In this document: one piece after another, positions 7,121 to 63,157 of the stretch
Layout: each line of letters starts with the position of its first letter
How positions within the stretch are numbered: the first letter of the stretch is position 1
Origin: Kiritimatiellia bacterium
GTDB taxonomy: Bacteria > Verrucomicrobiota > Kiritimatiellia > JAAZAB01
DNA: 64,000 nt
Direction: 5' to 3'
Assembly: GCA_041653875.1 (NCBI GenBank)
Contig: JBAZEM010000003.1
Coordinates: forward strand, 102,424-166,423
Made by a program: the position numbers and the translations under genes
Notes under the pieces: model-generated
Told to the model about the DNA's origin: nothing
The model's database searches: none
Seen by the model: the letters and a program-made list of their open reading frames with translations, nothing else

Positions 7121-7126
7121 ATCGTC

Positions 7127-33735: not shown

Positions 33736-33736
33736 A

Positions 33737-34627: not shown

Positions 34628-34851
34628 AGAAAATGCGGAAGGCAGAATGTAGAATGCAGAATAGAAGACCAGACGGACGCGAGCGGGGCCCCTATGCGGC
34701 GCGTTTGCTTGGCGGCATGTTGGGCCGCCAAGGGCGGCGACTGTTTCCCGTGGCCGCGGCGGTGACGCCGTGGCTGCCGAAGGAATCCACGCCCTTACGG
34801 GCGCGGCTACGAAGATTGGCCGCCCAAGGCGGAAATTCCCTCAAGTTGACC

Positions 34852-35856: not shown

Positions 35857-35869
35857 AACGAAGGCAACT

Positions 35870-36020
35870 ACTCAGCAAAAAACTTTTTTAACTACGAAAC
35901 ACACGAAATTAATTAAAAGCGTCAAGATTTAAGCATCAAAATACTTGTTTTCTTCTCTGATTTTCGCGTTTTTTGCGTGTTTCGTAGTTAGTCCTTTCTG
36001 TTGCTGAGCAGTTACAAACG
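35870..36020. repeat. Family D inverted-repeat element
   Basis: aactactcagcaa...aactacgaaacacacgaaa / ttttcgcgttttttgcgtgtttcgtagtt...ttgctgagcagtt arms flank aagcgtcaagatttaagcatcaaaatact. Related to 7855-7920. Confidence 0.6.
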
Positions 36021-36051
36021 AAGAACAAAGAACTGTTTACAGGTTATAGCA

Positions 36052-37086: not shown

Positions 37087-37143
37087 ATTGCGGAAATGGC
37101 GTAAAATTAAAAATCAAACATCCGAAATCGGAAATTATTAATC

Positions 37144-39939: not shown

Positions 39940-40151
39940 TTAAGTTGCCCCGCAAAGCGGGGTAACTTTTTCATAACGCCCGGTGATGGGCGCCGGGCCT
40001 GCAATATCTTTGTAGGCCGGGTCCCCTGACCCGGCGGGATTGTCATGCCATAGGCAGATCCGCCTCCCGCCGTCGCATAAAGCTATGGCGGGCAGGCTGG
40101 CGGAAAATTCCTTAACGTTTAATCAGGCGGCCAAAGGTCGCAACTGTTTCT

Positions 40152-42950: not shown

Positions 42951-43286
42951 ATGCAAACGGAACCTGCCATAACTACGACTATGACCCAAATGGAACTGGC
43001 GGAGGAGTTCCGCCGTCTGTTTTGGGATCGCCCCTTGGAAGCGAGCGATATTGACGCCTATCCTCAGTGGGTGGTTAAACGCGTGCTGGACTATGGCGAT
43101 TTGCCGGATGTTCAGGCGGCCCTGCGTTATTTTGGGCGGGATCGCTTTTTCGCCTTGGTAAACGGGATCCGTTTTGACTCCATTCGAACGGAGCGCTTCT
43201 GGCAACAACTCATGACCCATGAAGGATTGACGCCATGCACACAGAAACCCTGCCCCGGGGAAGCCGGCAAACTCTGGATTGGTTAG
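42951..43286 (+). CDS. Small protein immediately upstream of and overlapping the AbiEii-like gene; candidate cognate partner/antitoxin
   Basis: 111 aa, no recognisable domain. 52-nt overlap with the downstream NTase gene. Confidence 0.4.
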   Translation: MQTEPAITTTMTQMELAEEFRRLFWDRPLEASDIDAYPQWVVKRVLDYGDLPDVQAALRYFGRDRFFALVNGIRFDSIRTERFWQQLMTHEGLTPCTQKPCPGEAGKLWIG

Positions 43287-44011
43287 ACCGCCTAAGCGCA
43301 CCCGCCCTACGGAATTGGATATTAGCCGGCGGCACAGGGTTGGCCCTCCAGATCGGCCATCGTATTTCGGAGGACTTCGACTTTTTTCGAACGGACGACA
43401 TGGACGCGCGCGCGCTCCACGACGTTTTCAAAGCCTATGGGGCGTATGAAACCCTGCAGGAAGCCGAGCATACGCTGACGGTCCGTTTGGACCGGACCAA
43501 GCTTTCATTTTTTTGCGTCCGCGATCCGTTCCTGTTCGGCAGTCTGCCTTACCGATTTTTCACGATCGCGGACATAACCGACATTGCCCTGATGAAAATT
43601 GCCGCCATTTCGGGACGTGGCAGCCGCAAGGATTTTATAGACCTTTTTTTTATTCTCTCCGGGCCGCCTTTTTTAGCCGAAAAGTCCGGTGGCTTGTCCC
43701 GGGAAGCATCCTCCGCCGCCGAAGCGGCTATGGAGGACAGGATGGCGTTCTTGGCTTCCCAGGGTTCCGCGAAGATGCTCCGCGGCAAGCCGCAGAGCGC
43801 TTCGCTTTTCTTGCGTCAAATCCTGGAACTCACCATAAAAAAATACGGCGCCAGCCGCGCCAATCGCTACCACCTCTTGAAAAGCCTCACTTATTTTGAC
43901 GACGCCGAACGGGAGCCTATGCCGCAAATGCTTCGCGCCGTTGATTGGAACGCCTGCAAACGTTTTTTTATCCAAGCGGCGCAAGACGTGATTATGCAAC
44001 TCGAATCCTGA
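43235..44011 (+). CDS. AbiEii/DUF1814-family nucleotidyltransferase (type IV toxin-like)
   Basis: LAGGTGLALQIGHRISEDFDFF. Matches the GGTAL..HR.SEDLDF signature of AbiEii/AbiGii NTases. Confidence 0.65.
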   Translation: MHTETLPRGSRQTLDWLDRLSAPALRNWILAGGTGLALQIGHRISEDFDFFRTDDMDARALHDVFKAYGAYETLQEAEHTLTVRLDRTKLSFFCVRDPFLFGSLPYRFFTIADITDIALMKIAAISGRGSRKDFIDLFFILSGPPFLAEKSGGLSREASSAAEAAMEDRMAFLASQGSAKMLRGKPQSASLFLRQILELTIKKYGASRANRYHLLKSLTYFDDAEREPMPQMLRAVDWNACKRFFIQAAQDVIMQLES

Positions 44012-47124: not shown

Positions 47125-47826
47125 ATGTGCGAAAAATGTGGATGTTCAGATCGTGCGAGCCATCACCGTGCGTCAGACCATGACCGCGCGGACCTGCGCC
47201 ATCTGGACCACCTTGCGGAACAGAATCGAATGTTTTTCCAATCCAAGCGCGTGCTGGCCATCAATGTGCTGTCGTTTTCCTCATCCAGCGCCCGTCCGTT
47301 GCTCCGGCAAACGGTGGCCGAATGGGGCCGGCATCGTCATGTGGCTGTGGTGGACAGCGTCTTTTTGGAGTCCATTCATGCGGCCCATGATCATGAGTCC
47401 AGCCATTGCCATGCCCACGACGAGGCCGGGGAGGATCTGGGGTTGCTGGATGCGCACAAAATCAGCCATGCATTGCACGCCCTGGATTTGGACGGGGTGG
47501 ATGTTCTTCTCCTGGAAAACGGCGGAAGCGCCGCCTGCCAGGCGCTGAACGATTTGGGCGAAGTCCTCCGCGTAGCGGTCTTTTCCGTCCGGGATGGCGA
47601 ACTGAAACCGCTCAAGTTTCCTCCATTTTTCCAGAAGGCCGACGCTGTCGTTATCCAGGACATGGATCAGGCGGACGCGCTCGGCTTTGACCTGAGCAAG
47701 GCCCGCGCAAACGTCCGGAGCGTGGCGCCCCAGGCCGCGTTACTGGAGGCCTCGGCTCGCACGGGAACGGGGCTTGGCGAATGGTATGCGTTTTTGGAAG
47801 CGGGTTTGAAACGGTTCGAGGCGTAA
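47125..47826 (+). CDS. HypB-like (G3E family) metallochaperone homolog with degenerate Walker A / G4 motifs
   Basis: N-terminal MCEKCGC (HypB high-affinity Ni CxxCGC). His-rich stretch. Region aligns to HypB NLVSSPGSGKTTLL but reads NVLSFSSSSARPLL. CH and ENxG..C metal motifs are retained. The NKxD position reads QDMD. Confidence 0.6.
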   Translation: MCEKCGCSDRASHHRASDHDRADLRHLDHLAEQNRMFFQSKRVLAINVLSFSSSSARPLLRQTVAEWGRHRHVAVVDSVFLESIHAAHDHESSHCHAHDEAGEDLGLLDAHKISHALHALDLDGVDVLLLENGGSAACQALNDLGEVLRVAVFSVRDGELKPLKFPPFFQKADAVVIQDMDQADALGFDLSKARANVRSVAPQAALLEASARTGTGLGEWYAFLEAGLKRFEA

Positions 47827-48079: not shown

Positions 48080-48976
48080 ATGGCAAAGAATACAATCGCG
48101 AATGAAGTCCACAAGGGGCGCGTTCTGGTATCCGACGGGGCATGGGGAACGTTTTTGCAGAAGAAAGGCTTGAAGACGGGCGAATGCCCTGAACTCTGGT
48201 GCGTAACGCACCAACCGGATGTGCTCGACATTGCCAGGAGCTATATCGCCGCCGGCGCCGACATGATCGAATCCGACAGCTTCGGCGGCACACGCTACAA
48301 ACTGGAGCATTTTGGCCTGGCGGACCGCACCGCGGAAATCAATAAAGCCGCCGCCGCCATTTCCCGGGAAGCGGCCGGCGCCGACAAGTGGGTGATCGCC
48401 TCTGTCGGCCCAACCGGACGGATGACGGCCATGGGCGACGTGACGGAGCAGGATTTGTATGACGCGTTCAAGGAACAAGCCCTGGCCCTGGCCGCCGGCG
48501 GCGCGGATGCGTTGTGCATCGAAACCATGAGCGCCCTGGACGAAGCCTCCGCCGCGATCCGCGCCACGCGCGAAAACACAAAATGCGAAGTCATCTGCAC
48601 GTTCACGTTCGATCGCACCCTGCAGGGCGGATATCGAACCATGATGGGCGTATCGCCGACTGAGGCGGCCCGCGCGGCCGTGGCCGCCGGCGCCCATGCG
48701 ATCGGCGCCAACTGCGGCAACGGCATGGAACGGATGATCGAGATCGTGAAAGAAATGCGCGCGGCGGCGCCCAAGACCCCGATCCTGGTGCATGCCAATG
48801 CCGGCCTGCCGAAGAACGTGAACGGCGTGGACGTCTTTCCGGAAACTCCGGCTGACATGGCCGGCCGCGTGGCGCCCCTGGTGGCGGCCGGCGCAAACAT
48901 TATTGGCGGATGTTGCGGCACCACGCCGGCGCATATCGCGGCCATCCGCAAAGCAGTGGACGGATTAAAACGTTAA
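48080..48976 (+). CDS. Homocysteine S-methyltransferase-domain protein (MetH Hcy-binding/MmuM-like, Zn-dependent)
   Basis: GGCCGTTPAHI zinc motif, GANCGNG, TIM-barrel Hcy-domain pattern. AAGGAG RBS and ATG at 48080. The listed ORF start lies in a repeat. Confidence 0.75.
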   Translation: MAKNTIANEVHKGRVLVSDGAWGTFLQKKGLKTGECPELWCVTHQPDVLDIARSYIAAGADMIESDSFGGTRYKLEHFGLADRTAEINKAAAAISREAAGADKWVIASVGPTGRMTAMGDVTEQDLYDAFKEQALALAAGGADALCIETMSALDEASAAIRATRENTKCEVICTFTFDRTLQGGYRTMMGVSPTEAARAAVAAGAHAIGANCGNGMERMIEIVKEMRAAAPKTPILVHANAGLPKNVNGVDVFPETPADMAGRVAPLVAAGANIIGGCCGTTPAHIAAIRKAVDGLKR

Positions 48977-48997
48977 CCTGGAACGAAAGGAGCCCGT

Positions 48998-50059
48998 ATG
49001 AGCTTTCAACCGAAATTTTTGGCCTCGGCCATCGGCAGCATGCCCTTCGATAACGCGGATTACGCCGTGGAAGTTTCACTGAAGAACCTGCCGCAGGCGC
49101 CGATTTGGCCGCAGCTTCCCAAATTCGGCATGAACGAACAGATGGAGATTCAGTATTCCGAAGGCATGCCCTGCGCCGTGATCGACCGGGACAAGCAGCG
49201 CCTCTATTTCAACACGTCCGGCGATTACTCCGAGTCCTTTGCCGCGTTTTACGAGACGTATATGGCCGCGACCGAAGGCGGCGATCTCTCCGCCCTGGCC
49301 ATCAGCCCCGCTTTTTCGCGCGGCATTTACGCCTTGGAAAAGCGTCTCCAGGCCGGCGGCAAAAAGCTGCCCTACGTAAAAGTGCAGACCACCGGGCCGT
49401 GCAGTTTTGCCCTGACGATCGTGGACGAAAACAAGCGGGCGATCTATTACAACGAGGAATTCCTCGACATGATCGTAAAGACCCTGGCGCTGAAATGCCG
49501 CTGGCAAATCCGCAAGTTCAAGCCGTTTGCGGAACGCATCATTTGTTTCGTTGACGAGCCCATTCTCTCCGCCTTCGGCAGTTCGACCTATGTATCGGTC
49601 AAACGCGAAGACGTGGTCGCCCGAATCGGCGAAGTGGTCGAGGCGATTCATGCGGAAGGCGGACTCGCCGGCATTCATTGCTGCGGCAACACGGAGTGGA
49701 GCATCCTGATCGACGCGGGTGTGGACATCGTGAATTTTGACGCCTTCGGTTTCGGCGAGACGATCGCCATGTATGCCGACGCGGTCAAAAGCCACCTCGC
49801 CCGGGGCGGCGTCCTGGCCTGGGGGATCGTGCCGACTTCCACGGCCATCCGGGAACAAACCGCGGATACGCTGGCCGCCAAACTGGAGCAGACCATGCAA
49901 CACCTCGCCGGCAAGGGGATCGATCCGGCCTTGATTGCGCAACAAGCCATGCTGACGCCGTCATGCGGCACGGGTTCGCTGGAGCCGGCCGACGCGCTCA
50001 AGGTCTTCGAAACGCTGGCGGCGCTGTCCGTGAAAATGCGGGCGCAATACCGGTTTTAA
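48998..50059 (+). CDS. Core-MetE-like (cobalamin-independent methionine synthase catalytic-domain family; UroD-like fold) methyltransferase
   Basis: FVDEPIL (MetE IQIDEPA-type motif). HCCGN and SCGTGS Zn-ligand motifs. 353 aa. Confidence 0.6.
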   Translation: MSFQPKFLASAIGSMPFDNADYAVEVSLKNLPQAPIWPQLPKFGMNEQMEIQYSEGMPCAVIDRDKQRLYFNTSGDYSESFAAFYETYMAATEGGDLSALAISPAFSRGIYALEKRLQAGGKKLPYVKVQTTGPCSFALTIVDENKRAIYYNEEFLDMIVKTLALKCRWQIRKFKPFAERIICFVDEPILSAFGSSTYVSVKREDVVARIGEVVEAIHAEGGLAGIHCCGNTEWSILIDAGVDIVNFDAFGFGETIAMYADAVKSHLARGGVLAWGIVPTSTAIREQTADTLAAKLEQTMQHLAGKGIDPALIAQQAMLTPSCGTGSLEPADALKVFETLAALSVKMRAQYRF

Positions 50060-50095: not shown

Positions 50096-50311
50096 ATGAG
50101 CGACATCCGGTGTCCGGGACAGGACCAGCGCTATTGGAAGCCGGGCGATATTTTTTACGCCGGCTGTCCCTGGTGCGGCGCGGAAATCGAATTTTGGAAG
50201 GACGAGCCGGTTCGGATTTGTTCGAAATGCAGGCGCGAAGTGCGGAATCCACGAATGGACCTTGGATGCGCCAAGTGGTGCAAAGAGGCGGACAAATGCC
50301 TGGGACGCTGA
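50096..50311 (+). CDS. Small 8-Cys zinc-ribbon-like protein
   Basis: 71 aa. CPGQ...CPWC...CSKC...C..C...C pattern. Strong GGAGGAGG RBS 5-6 nt upstream. Confidence 0.5.
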   Translation: MSDIRCPGQDQRYWKPGDIFYAGCPWCGAEIEFWKDEPVRICSKCRREVRNPRMDLGCAKWCKEADKCLGR

Positions 50312-50321: not shown

Positions 50322-51095
50322 ATGAAAATAGCCATTTCAGGCAAGGGCGGGGTCGGAAAGTCAACCTTGGCGGCGGCGCTGTCCTTGCTTCTGGCGCGCA
50401 AGGGCCGGCAAGTGCTGGCCGTGGATGCCGATCCGGACTCCAATCTCGGGGCATCCCTGGGCATCCCGGCGGCGGACCGCCGGGCGATCGTGTCCATTGC
50501 CCGCCAAGTCGCCTTGATCGAGGAGCGCACGGGCGCGAAAGTCAGCCAGTTCGGCCAGGTCTTTAAGATGAATCCGGATGTCGCGGATATCGCGGATACT
50601 TTTGCCTGGCGGCACAACGGCGTGGCCTTGCTGGTGCTGGGCGCGGTGAAACGGGGCGGAGGCGGATGCGCTTGTCCGGAGAATGTGCTGCTCAAGGCGC
50701 TGGTGACCGAGTTGGTGTTGCGGCGGGACGAGGCCCTGGTGATGGACATGGAAGCCGGCATCGAGCATCTCGGACGGGGCACGACCCGGGGCGTGGATCT
50801 GATGCTGGTTGTGGTGGAGCCCGGCCAGCGGTCTCTGGATACCGCCCGCCGTGTGTTCGAGTTGGGCAGGCAACTGGGCTTGCGCCGTTTCCGGGTCGTG
50901 GCGAATAAAATCGCGAGCCCAGCCGACGAAACCTTCGTCCGTTCGGCCTTTAACGAGGAAGAATTGATCGGCGCGATTCCGTATTCCGAGGCCTTGCGCG
51001 GAGCGGACCGGGATGGCCGTTCCGTGTTGGACGGCATCCCCCCGGACATCCTGGCCAGGTTCGAAACAATTTTACGGCAAGTTGAACAAACGTAA
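50322..51095 (+). CDS. cooC: CO dehydrogenase nickel-insertion ATPase CooC
   Basis: P-loop SGKGGVGKST. CACPE Ni-binding CxC motif. Confidence 0.85.
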   Translation: MKIAISGKGGVGKSTLAAALSLLLARKGRQVLAVDADPDSNLGASLGIPAADRRAIVSIARQVALIEERTGAKVSQFGQVFKMNPDVADIADTFAWRHNGVALLVLGAVKRGGGGCACPENVLLKALVTELVLRRDEALVMDMEAGIEHLGRGTTRGVDLMLVVVEPGQRSLDTARRVFELGRQLGLRRFRVVANKIASPADETFVRSAFNEEELIGAIPYSEALRGADRDGRSVLDGIPPDILARFETILRQVEQT

Positions 51096-51141: not shown

Positions 51142-51375
51142 ATGAGCATCACGGATATTGAGCGTCAGAAATATGTCCGCCTGATCGCGCGCGTGGAAGA
51201 GTTGGAAGCCCGCGTGGCGGAACTGGAAGACGAAATCGCCTTCGATAAAGACTCCGGCCAATCCCAGGATGGGGCCTTGGTGGCAGACGAACTGCGGGCG
51301 GCGCAGAACAAATTGGCCGCGGCGCGCACCGAGCTGGCGCGCGTCAGCGACGGTTGCGGAAAACCCCACGGATGA
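51142..51375 (+). CDS. Small coiled-coil protein between the two cooC genes
   Basis: 77 aa, heptad-like EELEARVAELEDE. AGGAG RBS. Confidence 0.4.
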   Translation: MSITDIERQKYVRLIARVEELEARVAELEDEIAFDKDSGQSQDGALVADELRAAQNKLAAARTELARVSDGCGKPHG

Positions 51376-51418: not shown

Positions 51419-52198
51419 ATGAGTTTCACGATTGCCATAACGGGCAAAGGGGGGGTCGGCAAAACGACGCTCGCGGGTCTTCTGGTGAAACGCCTGATCG
51501 CCTCCGGACGCCGGCCCGTCCTGGCCGTGGACGCGGACCCCAACACCTGTTTGGACGCCGCGCTGGGCGTAAAAATCCGGCAGACGGTCGGCGGCGGCCG
51601 GGAAGAGGCCCGTCAAATCGCCGGCAAGGGGCTGGCGTCCGGCATTTCCAAACAGCAACTGTTGGAGCTGAAAATCGAGGAAAGCTTGGTGGAGGCCGAG
51701 GCTTTCGATTATCTCGCCATGGGACGGCCCGAGGGGCCGGGCTGTTATTGCTATGCCAATAATGTATTGAAATCGGCCTTGGAGACGCTGGCCGGCCATT
51801 ACCCCTATGTGGTGCTCGATAACGAGGCCGGATTGGAAAACCTCTCGCGCCGGATCGTGCGCAAAGTGGATCTTTTGATCATGGTGTCGGACCCGTCCCG
51901 CCGCGGCTTGGAAACGGTGCGGCGCTTGCACGCGCTGGCGCGGGAAATGGGCGTGGCCTTCGACCGTCTGGCTTTGGTGGTCAACCGCCTGCGGCAGGAA
52001 ACGCTGCCCGCGGAGGTCGAGGCCGTCCGCGCTGAAACCGGCGCCCAGGCGGTCTGGGGTTTGCCGGATCTCGCGGCGGTGGCGGAGCGAGCGGAGCGCG
52101 GCGAGTATGGATGCGACCTTCCGGCGGACAACGCGCTGGTGCGAAAAGTGGATGAGTTGCTGCGGGTTTTAGTGCCTGGCCGCGAAACTGGAGGATGA
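51419..52198 (+). CDS. acsF: CooC/AcsF-type Ni-insertion ATPase (second paralog)
   Basis: P-loop TGKGGVGKTT. CYCYAN CxC motif. Confidence 0.8.
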   Translation: MSFTIAITGKGGVGKTTLAGLLVKRLIASGRRPVLAVDADPNTCLDAALGVKIRQTVGGGREEARQIAGKGLASGISKQQLLELKIEESLVEAEAFDYLAMGRPEGPGCYCYANNVLKSALETLAGHYPYVVLDNEAGLENLSRRIVRKVDLLIMVSDPSRRGLETVRRLHALAREMGVAFDRLALVVNRLRQETLPAEVEAVRAETGAQAVWGLPDLAAVAERAERGEYGCDLPADNALVRKVDELLRVLVPGRETGG

Positions 52199-54159
52199 TC
52201 AACGATATGACAACGGAGACGAAACCAACCAAAAAAGCGGAAGATCGCGCCTGGGATGCGGCCTCCGTTGCGGTGTTGAACAAGGCCGCGGCGGAGTGTA
52301 TCGACACCTGCTTCAGCCGCATGGACACCCAGCAGAACCAATGCGCCTTCGGCAAACAAGGCATCTGTTGCCGGATTTGCTATATGGGGCCTTGCCGCAT
52401 CACGGCGAAAGCCCCCCGCGGGGTGTGCGGCGCGGATGCCGACACCATTGTGGCCCGCAATTTGCTCCGCGAAGTGGCCGGCGGCACCGCGGCGCATTCC
52501 GACCACGGACGCCACCTGGCGCTGCTGCTCAAGCGCGTCGCCGAAGGGCAAGGCGGCGATTACCGGATCAAGGATGAAGCCGTCTTGCGCCAGGCGGCCC
52601 GCTGGTACCAGGTCGAAGAAAGCGGCCGGGCGGCGAACGCCGTGGCGCTGGATCTGGCCAAATTGTTCTTGAACGAGTTTGCCTCGCAGGAAGAGACGCT
52701 CCGGACTTTGGCGCTGGCGCCGCAGAAACGGCGGAGCGTCTGGGAAAAAGAAGGCATCCAGCCGCAGGGGATCGACCGCATGTGCGTGGAAGCCCTGCAC
52801 CGCTCGACCATGGGCGTGGATCACGATTACGCGCATCTGCTGAGCCATGCGTTCCGAACCGCCTTGGCCGATGGCTGGGGCGGATCGCGGATTGCCACAA
52901 TCGTGTCCGATATTCTCTTCGGTTCGCCCGCGCCGGTGCGCAGCGAGGCGAATCTCGGCGTGCTGGGCGCCAAAACCGTGAACGTGGTGGTCCATGGCCA
53001 TGAACCCGCGCTTTCCGAAATGCTGGCCATTGCGTCGCAGGATGCGGACATGCTGGCGCTGGCGCGCGCGGCGGGGGCGGAAGGCATCACGCTGGCGGGC
53101 ATTTGTTGCACCGCCAACGAAATTTTGATTCGCCGCGGCATTCCGATCGCCGGGAATTTGCTGCAACAGGAATTGGCGATCGTCACCGGCGCCGTCGAGA
53201 TGATGGTGGTGGATGTGCAGTGCTGCATGCCCAGCTTGCCGACCGTGGCCGCGGCTTATCACACGGAAGTCGTTTCCACCAGCGCGATCGCCAAGACCCT
53301 TGGCACCACGCAGGCGGCCTTTGACGAGGAAAAGGCCCTGGCCTGCGCCAAGGACCTGCTCCGCCGCGCCATTGCCAACTTCAAGAACCGCCAGAGCGCC
53401 AAAGTCGCGATTCCGCCCTTGCGCTCGCCGCTGGTGGCCGGCTTTGGCGTCGAGGCAATCAAATATATGCTCGGCGGCCGTTACCGCGCCTCGTTTCGTC
53501 CGTTGAACGACGCCATCATGCAGGGCCGCATCCACGGCGTGGTGGGAATTGTCGGTTGCAACAACCCCAAGACGCGGGTCGATGAATACATCAACACCCT
53601 GACCAAGGCCTTGATCCAACGCAATGTGCTGGTGCTTAAGACCGGTTGCGCGGCGATTGCCTCGGCCAAGGAGGGACTCTTGACGCCCGAGGCGGCCTTG
53701 GAAGCGGCCGGGCCCGGCCTGCGCGAAGTGTGCGAAGCCATCGGCATCCCGCCGGTCTTGCACATGGGCAGTTGCGTGGACAATTCCCGCATCCTCGAGG
53801 CCGCCACGGAGGTCGTGCGGGAAGGAGGCTTGGGCGACGATCTTTCCATGATCCCGGCCGTGGGGGTGGCGCCGGAATGGATGAGCGAGAAAGCCGTGGC
53901 CATCGGCTTCTATTTTGTCGCCTCGGGCGTGGACGTCATCCTCGGGCATCCTTTCCGCATCGCCGGTTCGGCCAAGGCAACCCAATTCCTGAACACGGAT
54001 GTCCGTGAATCGTTCGGCGCAAGCTTCCACGTTTGCGAAGACGCGCCCGCCGCCGTCGAGCGGATTTTCGAACTGCTCGACCAGCGCCGCGAAAAATTGG
54101 GAATCAACCGCAAGATGGAGCGCAAGCTCTTTGACATGAAAGACAGGAGAGGCGTATAA
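52195..54159 (+). CDS. cooS: Anaerobic Ni-Fe-S carbon monoxide dehydrogenase catalytic subunit (CooS/AcsA)
   Basis: GICCRICYMGPCRI B/D-cluster motif. C-cluster ligand regions (HGH, GICCTANE, GCNN..., MGSCVDN). Alternative start ATG 52207. Confidence 0.85.
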   Translation: MINDMTTETKPTKKAEDRAWDAASVAVLNKAAAECIDTCFSRMDTQQNQCAFGKQGICCRICYMGPCRITAKAPRGVCGADADTIVARNLLREVAGGTAAHSDHGRHLALLLKRVAEGQGGDYRIKDEAVLRQAARWYQVEESGRAANAVALDLAKLFLNEFASQEETLRTLALAPQKRRSVWEKEGIQPQGIDRMCVEALHRSTMGVDHDYAHLLSHAFRTALADGWGGSRIATIVSDILFGSPAPVRSEANLGVLGAKTVNVVVHGHEPALSEMLAIASQDADMLALARAAGAEGITLAGICCTANEILIRRGIPIAGNLLQQELAIVTGAVEMMVVDVQCCMPSLPTVAAAYHTEVVSTSAIAKTLGTTQAAFDEEKALACAKDLLRRAIANFKNRQSAKVAIPPLRSPLVAGFGVEAIKYMLGGRYRASFRPLNDAIMQGRIHGVVGIVGCNNPKTRVDEYINTLTKALIQRNVLVLKTGCAAIASAKEGLLTPEAALEAAGPGLREVCEAIGIPPVLHMGSCVDNSRILEAATEVVREGGLGDDLSMIPAVGVAPEWMSEKAVAIGFYFVASGVDVILGHPFRIAGSAKATQFLNTDVRESFGASFHVCEDAPAAVERIFELLDQRREKLGINRKMERKLFDMKDRRGV

Positions 54160-57100
54160 TGTCTAAACTCATCTGCAGCAACGCCATCGATGGCGCCATC
54201 GAATGGGTGGCCCGGGCCGAAGCAAAACTGGCGGAGGCAATCCGCTCCAAAGGCGAAGCGTGTCCGGCGGCCTTTCCATCCACCGCGTATTTCCTGCCCA
54301 TCATCTATTCGTTCCTGGGCCAAAAGGTCGCCACCCTCGGAGACATGCGGAGCATTCTGCGCCGCGCCAAGGAACTGCTCCCGGCGCGGCCGTCCCGGCA
54401 GGTCTGGCTGCCGTATTTGGGCAATACGCTGGATGCCGGCGTGGCCGCGCTTTTTGCGTGCGAGATTCTGGAAGCCTGCAAGTATGTCATCGGCCCCAAC
54501 CCGGTGGAAGGCATTTGGCTGGGCGCGGCCAACGACGTGATCATGCGCGAGCGCGGCATCGAGTTCGTGGATGGAACGGCGCCGGGATTCGCCGCCATTG
54601 TCGGCGCGGCGCCGAACAAGGAAATCGCCGTGCAGATCGCCCGGGAATTACAGCAAAAGAATTTGTACGTGTTCATGGCCGGTTGCACGAATGGCGTGCA
54701 GTTCGCCGAACAGCTCGCCGAGGCCGGCGTGCAGCTGGGTTGGGAAACCCGACTGGTACCGTTCGGCCGCGATGTTTCGGCGGCGGTTTACGCCCTGGGG
54801 TTCGCCAACCGCGCGGCCCTTTCGTTCGGCGGCGTCAAGCCCGGCGATTACGAAGCCAACCTGAAGTATAACAAGAACCGTATCTTTGCCTTTGTGCTGG
54901 CGCTGGGCGAAGTGACGGCCGACAAATATGCCGTGGCGGCCGGCGCGATCAATTACGGCTTCCCGGTCATCGCGGACACCAACATCCCGCAGATCCTTCC
55001 CACGGGGGTGTGCACCTACGAGCATGTGGTATCCAACGTCCCCTACGAGAGCATGGTGGAACGCGCCCTGGAAGTCCGCGGCTGTAAAATCAAGATCGCC
55101 AAGGTGCCGATTCCCGTGCCCTATGGCCCGGCCTTCGAGGGCGAGCGCATCCGCAAGGCGGATGTTCATGCGGAGTTCGGCGGCAACCTGACGCCCGCGT
55201 TCGAATTCGCCACCTCCGTGGGCCTGGACCAGATCAATGACGGCGAGGTGGAAATCATCGGGCCGGATATCGACCAGGCGCCGGCCGGAACGGCGCTGCC
55301 TTTGGCCATCTGGGTGGAAGCGGCCGGGCGGAAAATGCAGCCGGATTTCGAGCCCATTCTGGAACGCCAGATCCATCACATGCTTAACGGCGCGGAAGGC
55401 ATCTGGCACATGGGCCAGCGCGACATCGTCTGGACGCGCGTCTCCAAGGCCGGGTTTGCCAAAGGCCTGCGTCTGCGCCATTACGGCGATATCCTCCATG
55501 CCAAATTGTTGTCCGACTATCCCGCCATCGTGGACAAGGTCAAGGTGACGCTGGTGACGGACCGGGCGGAAGTCGAGAAGCGCCTGGCCGTGGCCCGCAA
55601 AGTGTATGACGAGCGCAACCGCCGGCTGGAGACCATGACCGACGATTCCGTGGATACGTTTTACTCCTGTCTGCTGTGCCAGTCCTTTGCCCCCAACCAC
55701 GTCTGCATCATCACGCCCGAACGCCTGGGCTTGTGCGGCGCCTACAACTGGCTGGACGGCAAGGCGGCCTATGAAATCGACGAGACTGGCCCAAACCAGC
55801 CGGTGAAAAAAGGCGAATGCCTGGATCCGGTCAAGGGCGTGTGGAAGGGCATCGATGACTTCGTCTATGTGAACAGCCACAAGACCGTCCCTTCGTTCTG
55901 CGCCTATTCGATCATGGACAAGCCCATGACCAGTTGCGGCTGCTTCGAAGCGATTGTGGCCTATGTGCCGGAATGCAACGGCGTCATGGTGGTGAACCGG
56001 GAATTCCTGGGCGAAACGCCCGCCGGCATGACGTTCTCGTCCCTCGCCGGAAATGTGGGCGGCGGTCAGCAAACCCCTGGTTTCATGGGATGCGGCAAAG
56101 TGTTCCTGACATCGCGAAAATTCATGTTTGCCGAAGGCGGACACAAGCGCCTGGTCTGGATGCCCAAGGCGCTTAAAAAACTGCTGGCCGACGACCTGAA
56201 AAGACGGTTTACGGAACAGGGCGCCCCGGATCTCATGGACAAGATTGCCGACGAATCGGTCGGCAGCGATGGACAGACCGTCCGCGCCTTCATGGAAAAG
56301 GTGGACCACCCCGCGCTGCGCATGGACGACATGGCCACCTATGCCGAAGCGGCGCCCAAGGCGGAGGCGGCTCCCAGCACGCCGGCGCCCGCGGCGACAC
56401 TCATGGAAACGGCGGCGGCAAAATCCCTTGCGCCAGAACTCACGCCCGGAAAACCGGACGAGGCCCCGGCATTGACGCCGGACCTGATCGCCCAGATCAA
56501 GGCGCAGGTGGCGCATGAAGTCAAGACGACACTCACACAAGAGATCGTCCGCGACATCATCGGCTCCTTGAGCCGTCAATTTCTGGGCGGCTCGAGTCCT
56601 GTTTTGCCGGCAACCGCTCCCGCGGCAATGCCCGCGGCGCCGGCGCCCGTTGCCGCCCGCGCGCCGGAGTCAAAAAAGCCAGGCGTTGCGGAGCGCCTGG
56701 CCGCTGTCCGGACATTTACCATCAAGAAAGAGGCCTGCGAAGTCCCGGTGTGGACCGTGAAACTCGGGGCCACCAAGGCCGAAGGCGGAACGCGCGGCCG
56801 CACCTATATGATCGGCGGCGCCAAAGCGTTGCCGTTTCACGGCTGGGAAGGCAAGGCCGCCAATCCGCCGCGCATTGCCATGGAAGTTTACGATGTGGTG
56901 AGTGAAAAGTATCCGGCCGTGTTGCGCGCGATTTACGGCGACCTGTTAAACGATCCGGCGGCCATGGCGCGTGAATGCGTGACCAAGCACGGGGCCGATT
57001 TGATTTCCGTGCGCTTGGACGGCACCCACCCGGAGCGCGGCAACCGCTCGCCGGAACAAGCCGTCGAAGTCGTCCAGTCCGTGCTCCGGGCCGTGGATGT

Positions 57101-57674
57101 GCCGTTGATTGTCACCGGCCACAACAATTTCGACCGGAACAATGAGGTCATGAAGGCGGTGGCCCAGGCGTGCGCCGGTGAAAACCTGCTCTTGAACTGG
57201 GTGGAACAGAACAATTACCGGACGATCGCCGGCGCGGCCATTGCCTACAACCATGCCGTCGTTGCGCAGGCGCCCATCGACGTGAACATCGCCAAGCAAT
57301 TGAACATTCTGCTGACGAATATGGATTTGAAACCCGAGCGGATTGTCATGGACCCCATGACCGGCGCGCTGGGCTATGGCATCGAATACACCTATTCGGT
57401 CATGGAGCGCATTCGGCTGACCGGACTCGGCGGCGACAAGATGCTGGCCGGCCCGCTGATGGTCGCGCCCGGACCGGAATGCGTCAAAGTCAAGGAATGC
57501 AAGGCCGCGGAACGGGATTTCCCGGCCTGGGGTAATCTGGCCCAGCGCGCCGCGCTCTGGGAGCTGACCACCGCGCTCAGCCTGCTGTATGCCGGCGCCG
57601 ACCTGCTTGTCCTGAACCATCCGGATGCCGTTCGGGAACTGAAGTCGGCCATCGCACAGTTGATGGAGGAATAA
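54159..57674 (+). CDS. acsB: Acetyl-CoA synthase AcsB fused through an Ala/Pro-rich linker to a CFeSP small-subunit (AcsD/CdhD-like) TIM-barrel domain
   Basis: AcsB A-cluster motif CGCFE plus CLLCQSFAPNHVC. C-terminal ~330 aa match AcsD (GGTRGRTYMIGG, IAMEVYD, MDPMTGALGYGIEY). 1171 aa in total. Confidence 0.8.
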   Translation: MSKLICSNAIDGAIEWVARAEAKLAEAIRSKGEACPAAFPSTAYFLPIIYSFLGQKVATLGDMRSILRRAKELLPARPSRQVWLPYLGNTLDAGVAALFACEILEACKYVIGPNPVEGIWLGAANDVIMRERGIEFVDGTAPGFAAIVGAAPNKEIAVQIARELQQKNLYVFMAGCTNGVQFAEQLAEAGVQLGWETRLVPFGRDVSAAVYALGFANRAALSFGGVKPGDYEANLKYNKNRIFAFVLALGEVTADKYAVAAGAINYGFPVIADTNIPQILPTGVCTYEHVVSNVPYESMVERALEVRGCKIKIAKVPIPVPYGPAFEGERIRKADVHAEFGGNLTPAFEFATSVGLDQINDGEVEIIGPDIDQAPAGTALPLAIWVEAAGRKMQPDFEPILERQIHHMLNGAEGIWHMGQRDIVWTRVSKAGFAKGLRLRHYGDILHAKLLSDYPAIVDKVKVTLVTDRAEVEKRLAVARKVYDERNRRLETMTDDSVDTFYSCLLCQSFAPNHVCIITPERLGLCGAYNWLDGKAAYEIDETGPNQPVKKGECLDPVKGVWKGIDDFVYVNSHKTVPSFCAYSIMDKPMTSCGCFEAIVAYVPECNGVMVVNREFLGETPAGMTFSSLAGNVGGGQQTPGFMGCGKVFLTSRKFMFAEGGHKRLVWMPKALKKLLADDLKRRFTEQGAPDLMDKIADESVGSDGQTVRAFMEKVDHPALRMDDMATYAEAAPKAEAAPSTPAPAATLMETAAAKSLAPELTPGKPDEAPALTPDLIAQIKAQVAHEVKTTLTQEIVRDIIGSLSRQFLGGSSPVLPATAPAAMPAAPAPVAARAPESKKPGVAERLAAVRTFTIKKEACEVPVWTVKLGATKAEGGTRGRTYMIGGAKALPFHGWEGKAANPPRIAMEVYDVVSEKYPAVLRAIYGDLLNDPAAMARECVTKHGADLISVRLDGTHPERGNRSPEQAVEVVQSVLRAVDVPLIVTGHNNFDRNNEVMKAVAQACAGENLLLNWVEQNNYRTIAGAAIAYNHAVVAQAPIDVNIAKQLNILLTNMDLKPERIVMDPMTGALGYGIEYTYSVMERIRLTGLGGDKMLAGPLMVAPGPECVKVKECKAAERDFPAWGNLAQRAALWELTTALSLLYAGADLLVLNHPDAVRELKSAIAQLMEE

Positions 57675-57896: not shown

Positions 57897-59234
57897 ATGG
57901 CGCTTACCGGTTTGCAAATCCAAAAACTGCTCCCAAAAACCAACTGCAAGGAATGCGGCTCCAACACCTGCCTGGCCTTTGCCATGAAACTGGCGGCGAA
58001 AAAGGCGGACTTGTCCGCATGCCCTTACGCATCGGAAGAAGCCAAGCGCGTGCTCGGCGCGGCGAGCGAACCGCCGGTCCGGGAGATCGCGCTCGGCGGC
58101 GGCCGCCGGCTCAAACTGGGCGCGGAAACCGTCCTGTTTCGCCATGAAAAAACGTTCGTGAACCAGACCGCGCTCGCGGTGAATGTGAACGACACCGATG
58201 AACCCGCGGCGCTGGCAAAGACGTTGCAGGCCATTCGCGATTACGTGCTGGTGCGCGTGGGTGAAACCCTGCTGGTGGAGTTGGTTTGCGTGACCCAAAA
58301 AGGGAATAGCCCGGCCCGCTTTGCCGCGCTCGCCAAACAGGCGTGGGAGACCGTTAAGCGGCCGCTCATTCTGCGCAGCGCCGACGCGGACGCCCTGCGC
58401 GAAGCGGCGGCGGCCGTCAAAGGCTCCGGCAGCGTGCTGGCCCCCGCCACGCCGGAAGCCGCCCGCGCGCTGGCGGCGGTCGCCAAAGAAAACGGTCATG
58501 CCCTGGCCGTCACCGCGCCGGATTTGAACGATTTGACGGCGCTGGCCGCCGGCTTGAGAGCAGAGGGGTTCGGCGATCTGATCCTGCAGTTTCAGACGCA
58601 TTCGCTGGCCGAACAATTCCAGACCAATACGATTGCCCGGCGCGCCGCGCTCAAGGACAATTACAAACCGCTCGGCTATCCCAGCCTCCGGTTCGTGGAA
58701 GGCGCCGAACTGCTCGCCTGCGCCACCCAGGCTGTCACGGAAATCTGCAAGTATGGCGGCATCTGCGTTCTGCCGGTTTTCGATCCGGCGCTCTTGGCCG
58801 TCCTTATGACCCTGCGCTTGAATCTTTATACTGACCCTCAAAAACCGATCCAGGTGGAGCCCAGGATTTACCCCGTGGGCGAACCCAAACCGGATTCGCC
58901 GGTGTTTGTGACCACGAACTTCTCGCTGACCTATTTCATTGTGTCCGGCGAAATCGAAAACAGCGGCACAAGCGCCTGGCTGGTGGTCCCGGAATGCGAA
59001 GGCATGAGCGTGCTCACCGCCTGGGCGGCCGGGAAATTCTCCGGCGCCTCGATCGGGAAATTTATCAAGGAGTCCGGTCTGGAACAACAAGTCACGACGC
59101 GTCACATCGTGATCCCCGGATATGTCGCGCAAATCAGCGGCGAACTGGAAGAAAGTCTCCCCGGCTGGAAAGTGCTCGTGGGGCCGCAGGAAGCCGCCGA
59201 TATCGAGAGCTTTGTCAAGGCGCGGCTGGCATAG
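57897..59234 (+). CDS. acsC: Corrinoid iron-sulfur protein large subunit (AcsC/CdhE)
   Basis: N-terminal CKECGSNTC...CPY [4Fe-4S] motif. TIM-barrel and C-terminal corrinoid-binding region. Confidence 0.85.
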   Translation: MALTGLQIQKLLPKTNCKECGSNTCLAFAMKLAAKKADLSACPYASEEAKRVLGAASEPPVREIALGGGRRLKLGAETVLFRHEKTFVNQTALAVNVNDTDEPAALAKTLQAIRDYVLVRVGETLLVELVCVTQKGNSPARFAALAKQAWETVKRPLILRSADADALREAAAAVKGSGSVLAPATPEAARALAAVAKENGHALAVTAPDLNDLTALAAGLRAEGFGDLILQFQTHSLAEQFQTNTIARRAALKDNYKPLGYPSLRFVEGAELLACATQAVTEICKYGGICVLPVFDPALLAVLMTLRLNLYTDPQKPIQVEPRIYPVGEPKPDSPVFVTTNFSLTYFIVSGEIENSGTSAWLVVPECEGMSVLTAWAAGKFSGASIGKFIKESGLEQQVTTRHIVIPGYVAQISGELEESLPGWKVLVGPQEAADIESFVKARLA

Positions 59235-59844: not shown

Positions 59845-61773
59845 ATGCCGCTTGTCACATTCCAACCTTCGGGCCGGACCGTACAAATTCCCCCCAAAAC
59901 CGAGTTGCTGGATGCGATCCGGGCCGCCGGCGTTTCCATCGATTCGCCCTGCGGAGGACGCGGCACCTGCGGCAAGTGCATCGTCCGCATTGTCGCCGGC
60001 GCCGTGGATGCCGGCCAGAGCCTCGGGATGCTGCCCTCCGCCACGGTGGCGGATGGTTACGTGCTTGCCTGCAAGACCAAGGTGCAGGATTCCAACCTGA
60101 CCGTGGAAATCCCAGCAATACAGGCGCGGGAAGGCGCGCAAATCGCCGCGGGCGATGAAACCATCCTGGTCCGCGGCGAGCTGCTCCCAAAAAACTGGGA
60201 ATACGATTCCCTTTCCGTCAAGTGGTGCGTGGACGTGCCGCCGCCCCGGCTGGAAGACGGACTTTCCGACTTGGACCGGCTCACCCGCCGCATTCAGCGG
60301 GAATGGGGCGCCGTGGAATTGCATTACCCCTTGACGGTTATCCGCGAGGTGGCGAACGCGCTTCGCGCCCAGCAGGGCGTGGTGACCGCCACCTTGATCC
60401 GGACCCCGGAACGGATTTATGTGGTCCGCCTGGAAGCGGGCGACCAAACCACCAGCCATTATGGCATTGCCGTGGACATCGGCACCACCACGGTTTCGGT
60501 CCAGCTCGTGAATCTGGCGCTGGCGGAAATCGTGGGGACGCGCAGCGATTACAACGACCAAATCGCCTGCGGCCTCGATGTGATCGGCCGGATCAATTAC
60601 GCCCGGCGGCCGGACCGGCTCCGGGAATTGCGCGAACGAATTCTGGCCACGATCAATCGCCTGATTTGCCAGGTAACGGAGCAGCAGGGGATCGCCCCGC
60701 ATCTCGTCAGCAACGCCGTGCTCTCCGGCAACACCACGATGGTGCATTTGCTGCTGGGCCTGAACCCGGAATATATCCGGCTGAAACCCTACACCCCCAC
60801 GGTTCTGGAAGTTCCCTACCTGACCGCCGCGGAAGTCGGCATCGATATCGCCCCGGATTCCTGGATTTATATTTCCCCGAGTGTCGGCAGCTATGTCGGC
60901 GGCGACATCACCGCCGGCGTGCTCTGCACGGATTTGGCGATGGACACCGCGGACGTTAACCTCTTTATCGATATCGGCACCAACGGCGAACTGGTGGTGG
61001 GCAACAACGAGTTTCTCCTTACCTGCGCCTGTTCCGCGGGCCCGGCATTCGAAGGCGGCGGGGTCGATTGCGGCATGCGCGCGGCCCTCGGCGCCATCGA
61101 GCGCGCGGAGGTGAACCCCGAGGATGGCGCCGCCCGCTATTGGACCATCGGCAATGTCCCGCCCAAGGGTATTTGCGGTTCCGGCATGATTTCCCTGCTG
61201 GCCGATCTGATCAAAACCGGCTGGCTCGATTTCGCCGGAAAACTTAACCGTGCTCGCCCGTCGCCCGCCATTAAAATCGAAGGACGCCACGCTCACTATA
61301 TCATTGCGCCGGCCGGCCGCGACGGATTGACACACCCCGTTGTCATCAGCGAACCGGATATCGAAAATATCGTCCGCGCCAAGGCCGCCATCTATGCCGC
61401 TTGTTCGCTTTTGGTTCAGCACGCGGGCCTGACGTTCGGGGATTTGAAAAACGTTTACATCGGCGGTGGATTCGGACGGTTCCTCGATTTGGAGAAGGCC
61501 ATGACAATCGGCCTGATCCCGGAACTGCCGCGGGAAAAATACCACTACATCGGCAATTCCTCCCTGCTGGGTTCCTATATTGTGCTGGTTTCGCAGGATT
61601 ACCGCCAACGCCAATTGGAACTCGCCCGGCGCATGACGTATGTGGATCTCAGCTCGGATCCCCAATATATGGACCAGTACACCGGCGCGTTATTTCTGCC
61701 GCATACGGACCCGGCCCTGTTTCCCGGAGTTCATGCCGCGCTTCGTTCCAGCGGCATAACGCGTCCGGGATGA
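59845..61773 (+). CDS. Reductive activator of corrinoid enzyme (RACo-like: 2Fe-2S ferredoxin + ASKHA ATPase)
   Basis: MPLVTFQPSGRTV...CGGRGTCGKC 2Fe-2S motif. GIAVDIGTTT ASKHA phosphate-1. ~640 aa. Confidence 0.8.
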   Translation: MPLVTFQPSGRTVQIPPKTELLDAIRAAGVSIDSPCGGRGTCGKCIVRIVAGAVDAGQSLGMLPSATVADGYVLACKTKVQDSNLTVEIPAIQAREGAQIAAGDETILVRGELLPKNWEYDSLSVKWCVDVPPPRLEDGLSDLDRLTRRIQREWGAVELHYPLTVIREVANALRAQQGVVTATLIRTPERIYVVRLEAGDQTTSHYGIAVDIGTTTVSVQLVNLALAEIVGTRSDYNDQIACGLDVIGRINYARRPDRLRELRERILATINRLICQVTEQQGIAPHLVSNAVLSGNTTMVHLLLGLNPEYIRLKPYTPTVLEVPYLTAAEVGIDIAPDSWIYISPSVGSYVGGDITAGVLCTDLAMDTADVNLFIDIGTNGELVVGNNEFLLTCACSAGPAFEGGGVDCGMRAALGAIERAEVNPEDGAARYWTIGNVPPKGICGSGMISLLADLIKTGWLDFAGKLNRARPSPAIKIEGRHAHYIIAPAGRDGLTHPVVISEPDIENIVRAKAAIYAACSLLVQHAGLTFGDLKNVYIGGGFGRFLDLEKAMTIGLIPELPREKYHYIGNSSLLGSYIVLVSQDYRQRQLELARRMTYVDLSSDPQYMDQYTGALFLPHTDPALFPGVHAALRSSGITRPG

Positions 61774-61876: not shown

Positions 61877-63040
61877 ATGCAAGCCTCTGTTTTAAGACCG
61901 CACCCCGGCATAAACACCTTGGCTGTTCGCCGGGAGTACGAGCGCCGGTTCGGTTTCCGCACAGCCTTCACGGACACCGAAGGCCGGATCGGCGCCGGCG
62001 CCATCGATTGCGATTGTCGCGCCGCCCATGAACGCCAAGCCTTATGCCGCCGGATCGTGGCGGAATCGCTCCGCTGGGGCGAGCCGTTTATGGATCTATG
62101 CGCGTGCGAGCACATGCTATGGGGCATTCCGGTGATGGTCAACCAGCAGGTGCTCGGAGGGCTGGTCGCCTCGGCCAGCGCCGGCGATGGAAAACGCATG
62201 ACGCATCTGCGCAAAGCCGCGGATGCGTTATTAACCCTGGCGGTTGAAAACAACCTGACCAACGCCGCCCTGCTGACCGCGAACAGAGCCAAGGCGGACC
62301 GGGAACGGCAGAAAGCCGAGGCGATTCACGATTCCAAGACCGTGGATTACGATTATATCCGCTCCGTATATCTGCAGGAAGAGCCCGCCCTGATCGCCGC
62401 CATCCGCGAAGGCGAGCGCGGCGCGGCGCGCGCCATCATCAATCGTGTATTGGTCGGCATTTATTTTCTCGGCCGGCGCCGGCTCGATCTTTTGAAAAGC
62501 CTTGTATTGGAACTCGTGGTCATGATGTCGCGCGCCGCGGTCGAAACAGGCGCGGATCCCGCGGAAATACTCGGCAGTCATTATCGCAGTCTGGTGGAAT
62601 TGGACACAATCCTGGACGATGAAACCCTAACCCGCTGGCTGGCCGGCATCCTGGAACGAATCATGGATGCCATCCGCGACAAGCGGCGTTACCCCAGCAC
62701 CATCTTGCTGGGCCATGCGCTTCGGCATATGCGGGAGCATCTCGCCGGCGATATTAACCGCGACCAGGTGGCCAAGGTGGCGGGACTTTCGCCAAGCGTG
62801 TTTTCCCATCTCATGCGCGAACAACTCAACACTTCCTTTACCGAGTTGCTCACGCAATACCGGGTGGATCGCGCCGCCGAACTCCTGGCCCGGGCCACGG
62901 ACCCCATCTCGGAAGTGGCCTTGACTTGCGGCTTCCCGGATCAAAGTTATTTCACCAAAGTCTTTAAGAAGCGCATGGGAAAAACCCCGTTCGTTTACCG
63001 CCACGAACATGCTCCGGCCCTGACGGTCCCCGCAAAATGA
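61877..63040 (+). CDS. AraC-family transcriptional regulator with N-terminal PocR-like sensory domain
   Basis: C-terminal double HTH (VAKVAGLSPSVFSHLMREQ..., TCGFPDQSYFTKVFKKRMGKTP). Confidence 0.7.
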   Translation: MQASVLRPHPGINTLAVRREYERRFGFRTAFTDTEGRIGAGAIDCDCRAAHERQALCRRIVAESLRWGEPFMDLCACEHMLWGIPVMVNQQVLGGLVASASAGDGKRMTHLRKAADALLTLAVENNLTNAALLTANRAKADRERQKAEAIHDSKTVDYDYIRSVYLQEEPALIAAIREGERGAARAIINRVLVGIYFLGRRRLDLLKSLVLELVVMMSRAAVETGADPAEILGSHYRSLVELDTILDDETLTRWLAGILERIMDAIRDKRRYPSTILLGHALRHMREHLAGDINRDQVAKVAGLSPSVFSHLMREQLNTSFTELLTQYRVDRAAELLARATDPISEVALTCGFPDQSYFTKVFKKRMGKTPFVYRHEHAPALTVPAK

Positions 63041-63080: not shown

Positions 63081-63157
63081 TGGTACCCCGGAGAGGATTT
63101 GAACCTCCGACCTGCCGATTAGGAATCGGCTGCTCTGTCCAGCTGAGCTACCGGAGT
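63081..63157 (-). tRNA. tRNA-Arg (anticodon CCT)
   Basis: Reverse complement folds as a cloverleaf: acceptor ACTCCGG/CCGGGGT (one G-U), D-arm GCTCAGCTGGACAGAGC, anticodon arm GCCGA-TTCCTAA-TCGGC, T-arm GGAGGTTCAAATCCTCT. CCA is encoded. Confidence 0.8.

Follow-up and report, generated by a model that had tools for sequence, protein, structure and literature searches.

Why does one operon carry, side by side, two enzymes of distinct fold that both appear to methylate homocysteine? The question is raised by a 64,000-nucleotide stretch of contig JBAZEM010000003.1 from a Kiritimatiellia bacterium (assembly GCA_041653875.1, positions 102,424 to 166,423 of the forward strand). We refer to this whole analyzed stretch as the window. 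In it, two ORFs (gene 1 and gene 2) follow one another on the same strand with 21 nt between the stop codon of the first and the start codon of the second. Both had been called correctly in the original prediction, which described a stand-alone homocysteine-binding (Hcy) domain protein next to a core-only MetE-type protein and raised a methyl-corrinoid as a possible methyl donor. It overlooked the operon context. The pair heads a conserved operon that encodes CO dehydrogenase/acetyl-CoA synthase (CODH/ACS), the corrinoid iron-sulfur protein (CFeSP) and RACo, and in the loci examined this operon is without AcsE. Gene 1 and gene 2 are the only methyltransferase candidates found in this horizontally spread operon. 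With moderate confidence, we conclude that both proteins are methyl-corrinoid:homocysteine methyltransferases and that gene 2, a member of the MesB family, is served by the CFeSP of the operon.

Gene 2 matches no Pfam family, including PF01717, PF01208 and PF00809, even at E ≤ 10, and its sole match in the NCBIfam library is a weak one (26 bits) to PRK00957, “methionine synthase.” Sequence and profile searches against the PDB returned spurious pentatricopeptide repeat (PPR) matches or nothing. A search of 1.8 billion cluster representatives retrieved 433 relatives at E ≤ 1e-30, and a protein from a Kiritimatiellia metagenome-assembled genome is 100% identical to gene 2. The motifs noted previously are in place in a protein without an N-terminal MetE domain: DEP is D186-E187-P188, the H-C…C ligands are H227-C-C229 and C323. 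In a 58-sequence family alignment, H227, C229, D248 and C323 never vary, S14 and D186 almost never, and all six are conserved in the 108 operon-linked orthologs (108/108). Alignment of the gene 2 profile with E. coli MetE using hhalign involved only the C-terminal half (Prob 80.5%, E = 1.3e-5) and placed H227, C229, D248 and C323 on MetE H641, C643, E665 and C726. Local pieces from hmmsearch aligned S14, D186 and C323 to MetE S433, D599 and C726. The AlphaFold2 (AF2) model is a single domain of alternating strands and helices (pLDDT 97). Foldseek ranked MetE structures at the top for this model (E = 3e-8, TM 0.58-0.64), and UroD and a Methanosarcina MtaA-like enzyme (4ay7/4ay8) followed at lower TM. 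A UroD/MtaA identity, which would have been at odds with the original prediction, was rejected given the lack of a PF01208 match and an hhalign probability of 0.2% with E. coli HemE. The expected assignment of gene 2 to PF01717 also failed, as there was no Pfam match at any threshold. Compared with MetE (PF01717/TIGR01371), the gene 2 barrel is homologous and its zinc ligands align, but it has no Pfam or TIGRFAM match, lacks the N-terminal barrel (the Meth_synt_1 half) and has Asp in place of Glu665. Moreover, the characterized core enzymes do not use methyl-folate.

We compared gene 2 with MesB of Dehalococcoides mccartyi (CbdbA481/DET0516; PMC7005905, PMC7857596). Both are single barrels of the MetE C-terminal type, about 345 aa long and without a folate half, and both have Ser and Asp homocysteine contacts and HCDC zinc ligands with near-identical spacing. 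In detail, the MesB ligands are H214, C216, D235 and C311 and its homocysteine contacts are S15 and D177 (Price, 2021; PMC7857596). The ligand spacing is 2/19/75 in gene 2 versus 2/19/76 in DET0516, the latter taken from the same study. That study accepted proteins as MesB at a minimum of 130-173 bits to DET0516. DET0516 was not among the 390 proteins that we screened by residue-position fingerprint, and protein P0393 from a Methanomassiliicoccales cluster (locus L165) stands in for it: gene 2 shares 34% identity with P0393 (230 bits). P0393 adjoins CooC, RACo, AcsC, AcsD and AcsB. From this ACS-cluster context and the statement that Methanomassiliicoccales have MesB only (Price, 2021; PMC7857596), P0393 is probably MesB. 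Known MesB proteins occur only alongside AcsC/AcsD and are operonic with ACS genes in Methanomassiliicoccales (L165). In keeping with this co-occurrence of MesB and CFeSP, AcsC and an AcsD domain are encoded in the same operon as gene 2. The gene 2 clade differs from known MesB in being built into the head of the ACS operon with no AcsE nearby, usually preceded by an unrelated homocysteine methyltransferase. It is a tight subfamily, with 66-90% identity across phyla and at most ~50% to other representatives of the family. Profile, fold and motif evidence places gene 2 in the MetE catalytic-barrel lineage with the MesB-type H-x-C…D…C signature. The earlier core-MetE assignment therefore stands as regards the lineage (hhalign, Foldseek, PRK00957 and the Methanomassiliicoccales homolog agree on it), but the protein is predicted to belong to the MesB family rather than to be a generic core-MetE.

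Two other relatives of gene 2 have different genomic settings. One, with 42% identity (L164 10001-12261, +), overlaps by 7 nt the start of a gene for a 399-aa B12-binding/Met_synt_B12 protein. This translational coupling supports the view that the gene 2 family draws on corrinoid proteins. The L164 gene pair resembles a two-gene methionine synthase that is MetH-like but folate-free, Met_synt_B12 being the MetH reactivation domain. The other relative lies amid housekeeping genes.

Gene 1 is easier to place. It matches PF02574 along the whole profile (positions 1-283 of 283) with E = 6e-70 and 236.7 bits (cut-off 22), and the Pfam scan detected no pterin, B12 or other domain besides PF02574. The GGCCG zinc motif reported previously contributes C278 and C279, the third Cys is C212 in GANCG, and the three align with the zinc-ligand motifs of T. 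maritima MetH. These residues are invariant in an alignment of 77 operon-linked homologs (77/77), as are D19 (the Asp of DGxxGT) and E148 (the Glu of ET), which we take to be the homocysteine amino-group contacts from MetH and BHMT structures. The best PDB relative is the Hcy barrel of T. maritima MetH (152 bits, versus 65 for BHMT and 45 for YagD). On these scores we rejected an S-methylmethionine (SMM)- or betaine-type identity, the reading that would have told against a corrinoid donor. The top NCBIfam matches are YitJ-N (256 bits) and PRK07534 (232 bits, below the equivalog cut-off of 338). To judge by its name, PRK07534 may correspond to the Sinorhizobium “BHMT” (the MtgE of PMC12478193, see below). 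All of the 120 closest homologs are ~298 aa long with PF02574 as the sole domain. By these profile comparisons, gene 1 is predicted to be a stand-alone PF02574 enzyme, closest to the Hcy barrel of cobalamin-dependent MetH. The pair thus comprises, as originally proposed, two distinct folds with intact Zn-thiol sites, a MetH-type Hcy barrel and a MetE-type core barrel.

Table 1. Genes of the CODH/ACS-CFeSP-RACo operon and its flanks in the window (positions counted from the first nucleotide of the window).
Feature	Position	Strand	Characteristics
HypB-type Ni-insertion GTPase	47125..47826	+	TIGR00073 hypB, 132 bits vs cut-off 121
Gene 1 (PF02574)	48080-48976	+	ATG start, 298 aa, AAGGAG 8 nt 5′ of start
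Gene 2 (MesB-like)	48998-50059	+	ATG start, 353 aa, AAAGGAG upstream of start
71-aa Cys-rich zinc-ribbon-like protein, no family	50096..50311	+	Sole Pfam signal: sub-threshold zf-HYPF
CooC-type Ni-insertion ATPase 1	50322..51095	+	CbiA/ParA-family P-loop
77-aa coiled-coil protein, patchy conservation	51142..51375	+	Between the two CooC genes
CooC/AcsF-type ATPase 2	51419..52198	+	CbiA/AAA_31; conserved in related loci
Ni-CODH catalytic subunit CooS/AcsA	52195..54159	+	TIGR01702, 609 bits vs cut-off 478
AcsB::AcsD fusion	54159..57674	+	1171 aa; CODH_A_N, CdhC, ACS_CODH_B_C, then CdhD at residues 877-1104
AcsC, large CFeSP subunit	57897..59234	+	PF04060 FeS + PF03599 CdhD
RACo, ATP-dependent corrinoid-protein reductive activator	59845..61773	+	Fer2, RACo_linker, Raco_middle, RACo_C_ter; gene call from L166
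AraC-family regulator flanking the operon	61877..63040	+	HTH_18/HTH_AraC

The genes of the operon are listed in Table 1. Shine-Dalgarno sites precede gene 1, gene 2 and the gene for the small Cys-rich (Zn-finger) protein, and the intergenic gaps are short. A promoter and terminator scan was uninformative, with no convincing terminator between these three genes. In this lineage, the transcription unit probably starts with hypB. Homologs of HypB (45-53% identity) are encoded immediately before the pair in L001-L007, L082, L084 and L086. AcsB and AcsD are fused in one ORF, and CFeSP is therefore tethered to ACS in this type of operon. The fusion is retained in nearly all related loci (61-88% identity).

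To what extent the pair and the operon belong together was evaluated using ~160 related loci. These comprise 80 species-representative genome loci found with gene 2, plus metagenome loci anchored on AcsB, a set that removes the bias of anchoring on gene 2. The genome loci are labeled as Lentisphaerota, Kiritimatiellota, Verrucomicrobiota, Planctomycetota, Bacteroidota, Bacillota, Spirochaetota, Omnitrophota, KSB1, Acidobacteriota/Aminicenantes, Ignavibacteriota, Desulfobacterota and others, in all more than 10 phyla. The whole operon recurs in related loci at 55-88% protein identity, and recurrence at this level over so many phyla implies lateral spread. Of the 65 genome loci in which sequence extends downstream of the MesB-like gene, 63 encode CooC within 2.5 kb. 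Among the 72 genome loci with at least 1.1 kb upstream, 55 have a PF02574 gene directly upstream on the same strand (median gap 78 nt), three have a more distant PF02574 paralog that is divergently placed, and 14 have no PF02574 gene within the flank. The adjacency of gene 1 and gene 2 holds in 55 of 72 species-level genomes, spread over many phyla, and is far beyond chance. When the metagenome loci with at least 6.5 kb upstream of the AcsB anchor were considered, the MesB-like gene was present in 28 of 32 and the PF02574 gene in 17 of 32, always with the MesB-like gene. Thus, no operon was seen to contain the PF02574 gene and lack the MesB-like gene, while some contain only the MesB-like gene of the two.

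The PF02574 gene has at least four placements: it may directly precede the MesB-like gene, precede Znf-CooC, be divergently oriented or follow RACo. Reordered loci retain both genes, for example as PF02574-Znf-CooC-MesB-CooC or with PF02574 after RACo. Linkage to the ACS operon in at least four arrangements speaks for a functional link and against placement by chance. Whether or not the partner is present, all 108 copies of the MesB-like protein share the same catalytic residues. A search for subfunctionalization in these 108 copies found no alignment column that distinguishes those accompanied by PF02574 from those that lack this partner.

Several loci depart from the common layout in other ways. 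In L015, L030, L036, L038, L044 and L060, genes for a CooF-like 4Fe-4S protein and an FAD/NAD(P) oxidoreductase precede CooS, the CooS is more divergent (~51% identity) and the PF02574 gene is lacking. Genes for a DUF3786 protein and a CobW-type GTPase follow RACo in L143 (16750-18355), L112 (12040-12696) and L095 (18450-19445), and their products possibly serve the operon as additional accessory or maturation factors. The 71-aa Cys-rich protein shares 62-80% identity across loci (copies occur, for example, in L009, L011, L016, L095, L105 and L143) and varies in position: its gene may follow MesB, lie upstream in the opposite orientation, or follow RACo. Using tblastn, we found copies of the 77-aa coiled-coil protein, 36-77% identical, between the CooC genes in ~20 loci. 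The record titles of L002, L032 and L077 read “Akkermansia muciniphila,” “Victivallis vadensis” and “Akkermansia sp.,” labels that look automatic and not like properties of the cultured species.

Canonical acs clusters encode AcsE, a pterin-binding methyltransferase, and the Methanomassiliicoccales cluster L165 includes it. With the L165 AcsE as query, tblastn returned no match in the window or in the 160 related loci, a search confined to these loci. AcsE was also absent from the Pfam scans of neighboring ORFs. Neither the 64-kb window nor, in most loci, the vicinity of the pair yielded a PF00809 or PF02310 partner for gene 1. Among 94 ORFs that precede the pair on the same strand, Pfam annotation revealed no recurrent methyl-donor system (RACo-like, 3; DUF3786, 4; MtaB, 1; FTHFS, 1). 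In an operon of the Syntrophales type that is without the PF02574 gene, formate-tetrahydrofolate ligase (Fhs) is encoded directly upstream of the MesB-like gene (L062 8123-9808; also L118, L119, L133, L137, L154, L159 and L033). A folate branch therefore exists in this group, and AcsE is probably encoded elsewhere.

MtaC-type B12 proteins occur near the pair in only three of the ~160 loci (L067, L143 and L155), and these are the only loci with a donor system beside it. In L067, from a Pontiellaceae metagenome-assembled genome (MAG), the gene order at 3783-8546 (+) is MtaC-MtaB-CobW-RamA, followed by PF02574-MesB-CooC/ACS genes. The MtaC-type protein consists of B12-binding_2 and B12-binding domains and MtaB is a methanol:cobalamin methyltransferase (E = 1e-159). 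The CobW GTPase and a RamA/RACo-like activator are encoded on the same strand directly before the PF02574 gene. In the metagenome loci L143 and L155, MtaC and a RamA-type activator are in the same place. L067 has no MtaA-type methyltransferase 2 (MT2), either pterin-binding or UroD-like, and the MetH-type barrel therefore holds the MT2 position. This locus suggests a division of labor, with the MetH-type barrel acting on MetH/MtaC-type corrinoid domains and MesB on CFeSP. An AraC/PocR regulator with 27% identity to the AraC-family regulator of the window flanks the L067 operon.

From the folds, motifs, family placements, operon structure and conservation, we infer substrates, donor proteins and the direction of flux as follows. 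The zinc site of gene 2 (H227, C229, D248 and C323) would activate the thiol of homocysteine, which would be held by S14 and D186. The thiolate would attack methyl-Co(III) on CFeSP (AcsC plus the AcsD domain of the AcsB fusion), yielding methionine and Co(I). Gene 1, with zinc bound by C212, C278 and C279 and homocysteine contacted by D19 and E148, would follow the chemistry of the Hcy module of split methionine synthases. Its methyl group would be drawn from a methyl-corrinoid on a separate protein: CFeSP again or, to judge from the Pontiellaceae locus, an MtaC/MetH-type B12 protein. RACo would keep the corrinoid protein active. The operon would then connect corrinoid-bound methyl groups directly with the methyl pool of methionine, bypassing methyl-tetrahydrofolate. 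CFeSP had already been predicted as the methyl donor of the MesB family (Deobald, 2020, PMC7005905; Price, 2021, PMC7857596).

A methyl-corrinoid donor, suggested in the original prediction, remains the best reading in view of homology and the surrounding CFeSP/ACS operon, yet several points weigh against two methionine-forming enzymes. A second intact homocysteine methyltransferase in the same operon looks redundant, and such a role leaves the retention of the pair in about three quarters of the genomes unexplained. We know of no case in which docking of a MetH-type Hcy barrel on CFeSP has been shown. Further, ahead of the operon no S-adenosylmethionine (SAM) riboswitch or T-box was detected, either in the window or in 14 related loci, seven of them from Bacillota, which is unusual for a methionine-biosynthesis unit of Bacillota.

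In a rival reading, the two enzymes would work in sequence. The original prediction had raised such a relay, and the form of it that we consider, which seems unlikely to us, lets homocysteine/methionine take the place of tetrahydrofolate and shuttle methyl groups in solution between corrinoid proteins of two classes. Gene 1 would unload methyl-MtaC-type proteins, charged by methanol or other donors, onto homocysteine, and gene 2, running in reverse, would pass the methyl group of methionine to Co(I)-CFeSP. The pair would do the job of MtaA and AcsE without tetrahydrofolate. Such a relay is consistent with the lack of AcsE/PF00809 homologs in the window and the 160 loci, both by tblastn and in the Pfam scans of neighbors, with the occurrence of PF02574 in the operon only when the MesB-like gene is present while the reverse is seen, and with the absence of methionine-type riboswitches (S-box/T-box), including in the seven Bacillota loci. 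Its closest precedent is the MtaB-MtaC-MtaA system combined with AcsE of acetogens. L067 has the same order, from methanol via corrinoid and carrier to CFeSP, with a TIM-barrel methyltransferase and then ACS, but the MT2 and AcsE positions are taken by zinc-thiol enzymes instead of pterin-binding barrels, and the carrier would therefore be homocysteine and not tetrahydrofolate. With its methanol:corrinoid system upstream, PF02574 in the MT2 position, then MesB-like and ACS genes and no MtaA, L067 gives the relay some concrete footing, though not proof, and MtaC with RamA in the same position in L143 and L155 fits as well. Many of the host lineages are labeled as polysaccharide-degrading fermenter groups (Victivallales, Kiritimatiellales and Bacteroidales), for which conversion of methanol and CO2 to acetate would be a useful electron sink. 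However, a donor system accompanies the pair in just those three loci of ~160. Transfer of a thioether methyl group to Co(I) is thermodynamically unfavorable, and neither MesB nor MetE is known to catalyze it. Finally, MesB-only operons are common and some lie beside Fhs; the genomes with these, at least, probably encode AcsE at another site.

Alternatively, gene 1 could be the Hcy module of a split, folate-dependent MetH whose other modules are encoded elsewhere. It would then be located beside ACS for co-regulation of C1 metabolism, with MesB as an independent second synthase. We judge this, too, to be improbable. Phaeobacter and Ruegeria provide an established precedent, a three-part MetH in which PF02574 forms a module of its own (Price, 2018; PMC12478193), and in 2025 bacterial “BHMT” was re-read as MtgE, the stand-alone Hcy module of a split methionine synthase (PMC12478193). 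Like that module (PGA1_c13370/MtgE; Price, 2018, PMC12478193), gene 1 has only PF02574 in ~300 aa, its Zn and Hcy sites are intact, and its methyl group is expected from a separately encoded corrinoid protein charged by other methyltransferases. The match to PRK07534, linked to the MtgE-type “BHMT” by name only, and a second RACo/RamA-like activator at the start of the window also fit. But the match to PRK07534 misses the cut-off (232 vs 338 bits). The known partners of the module are a MetH-type B12 protein and a pterin-binding module, whereas the neighbors of gene 1 are MesB and CFeSP/ACS. There is no pterin module near gene 1, and the search for PF00809/PF02310 partners described above was negative for the window and for the surroundings of the pair in most loci. 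A module of a dispersed MetH would also not be expected to stay with the ACS operon over more than 10 phyla and in at least four arrangements.

That one or both enzymes use another thiol (methanethiol, methylmercaptopropionate, a CoM-like cofactor or a selenol) to load or unload CFeSP as in the Mts/Mta systems of methanogens is very improbable: the fold family of gene 2 does include MtaA-type methylcobamide:thiol transferases (4ay7/4ay8, by Foldseek) and PF02574 enzymes with acceptors other than homocysteine exist, but S14 and D186 of gene 2 and D19 and E148 of gene 1, which contact the amino-acid moiety of homocysteine, are invariant, and no PF01208 signal is seen for gene 2.

MesB, its link to the corrinoid protein that the Wood-Ljungdahl pathway uses, and stand-alone Hcy modules are already published. 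In the literature we found no description of a conserved pairing of the two at the head of a mobile ACS operon with an AcsB-AcsD fusion and no nearby AcsE. What appears to be new is the co-inheritance of both enzymes as the sole methyltransferase candidates of a laterally mobile CODH/ACS-CFeSP operon, hosted by Kiritimatiellia, Lentisphaerae, Planctomycetes, Bacteroidota, Clostridia, spirochaetes and candidate phyla. If both enzymes are methyl-corrinoid:homocysteine methyltransferases, as we favor, the predicted MesB-CFeSP route to methionine is at least extended to many more anaerobes, and a MetH-type partner is newly linked to the operon. If instead the methyl group were relayed through homocysteine to CFeSP, the operon would provide a folate-independent methyl entry into the acetyl-CoA pathway. 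Fermenters without a folate methyl branch or AcsE could then make acetyl-CoA from scavenged methyl groups and CO2, “incomplete Wood-Ljungdahl” gene sets in MAGs would be read differently, and the turnover of methanol and methyl-sulfur compounds in anoxic habitats would be attributed differently.

Other features of the window lie outside the operon. The sole Rfam match in the window is a tRNA gene at 63084-63157 (-). The second RACo-family activator is encoded at 1-757 (-), ~47 kb upstream of the pair, and runs off the window start. In the source contig it is 639 aa long and shares 36% identity with the RACo of the operon (full gene, L167 20030-20837+), and a homolog search with it returned only partial proteins. 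It hints at a further corrinoid methyltransferase system just beyond the window. Upstream of the pair, a Bat/MoxR-type cluster (MoxR AAA ATPase, DUF58 and vWA proteins, and BatD) occupies 32620-42098 (+) and is followed by an AbiEii-family nucleotidyltransferase toxin gene at 43235-44011. An electron-transfer flavoprotein pair is encoded at 11934-14058 (-), and its alpha subunit has an N-terminal 2x[4Fe-4S] ferredoxin domain.

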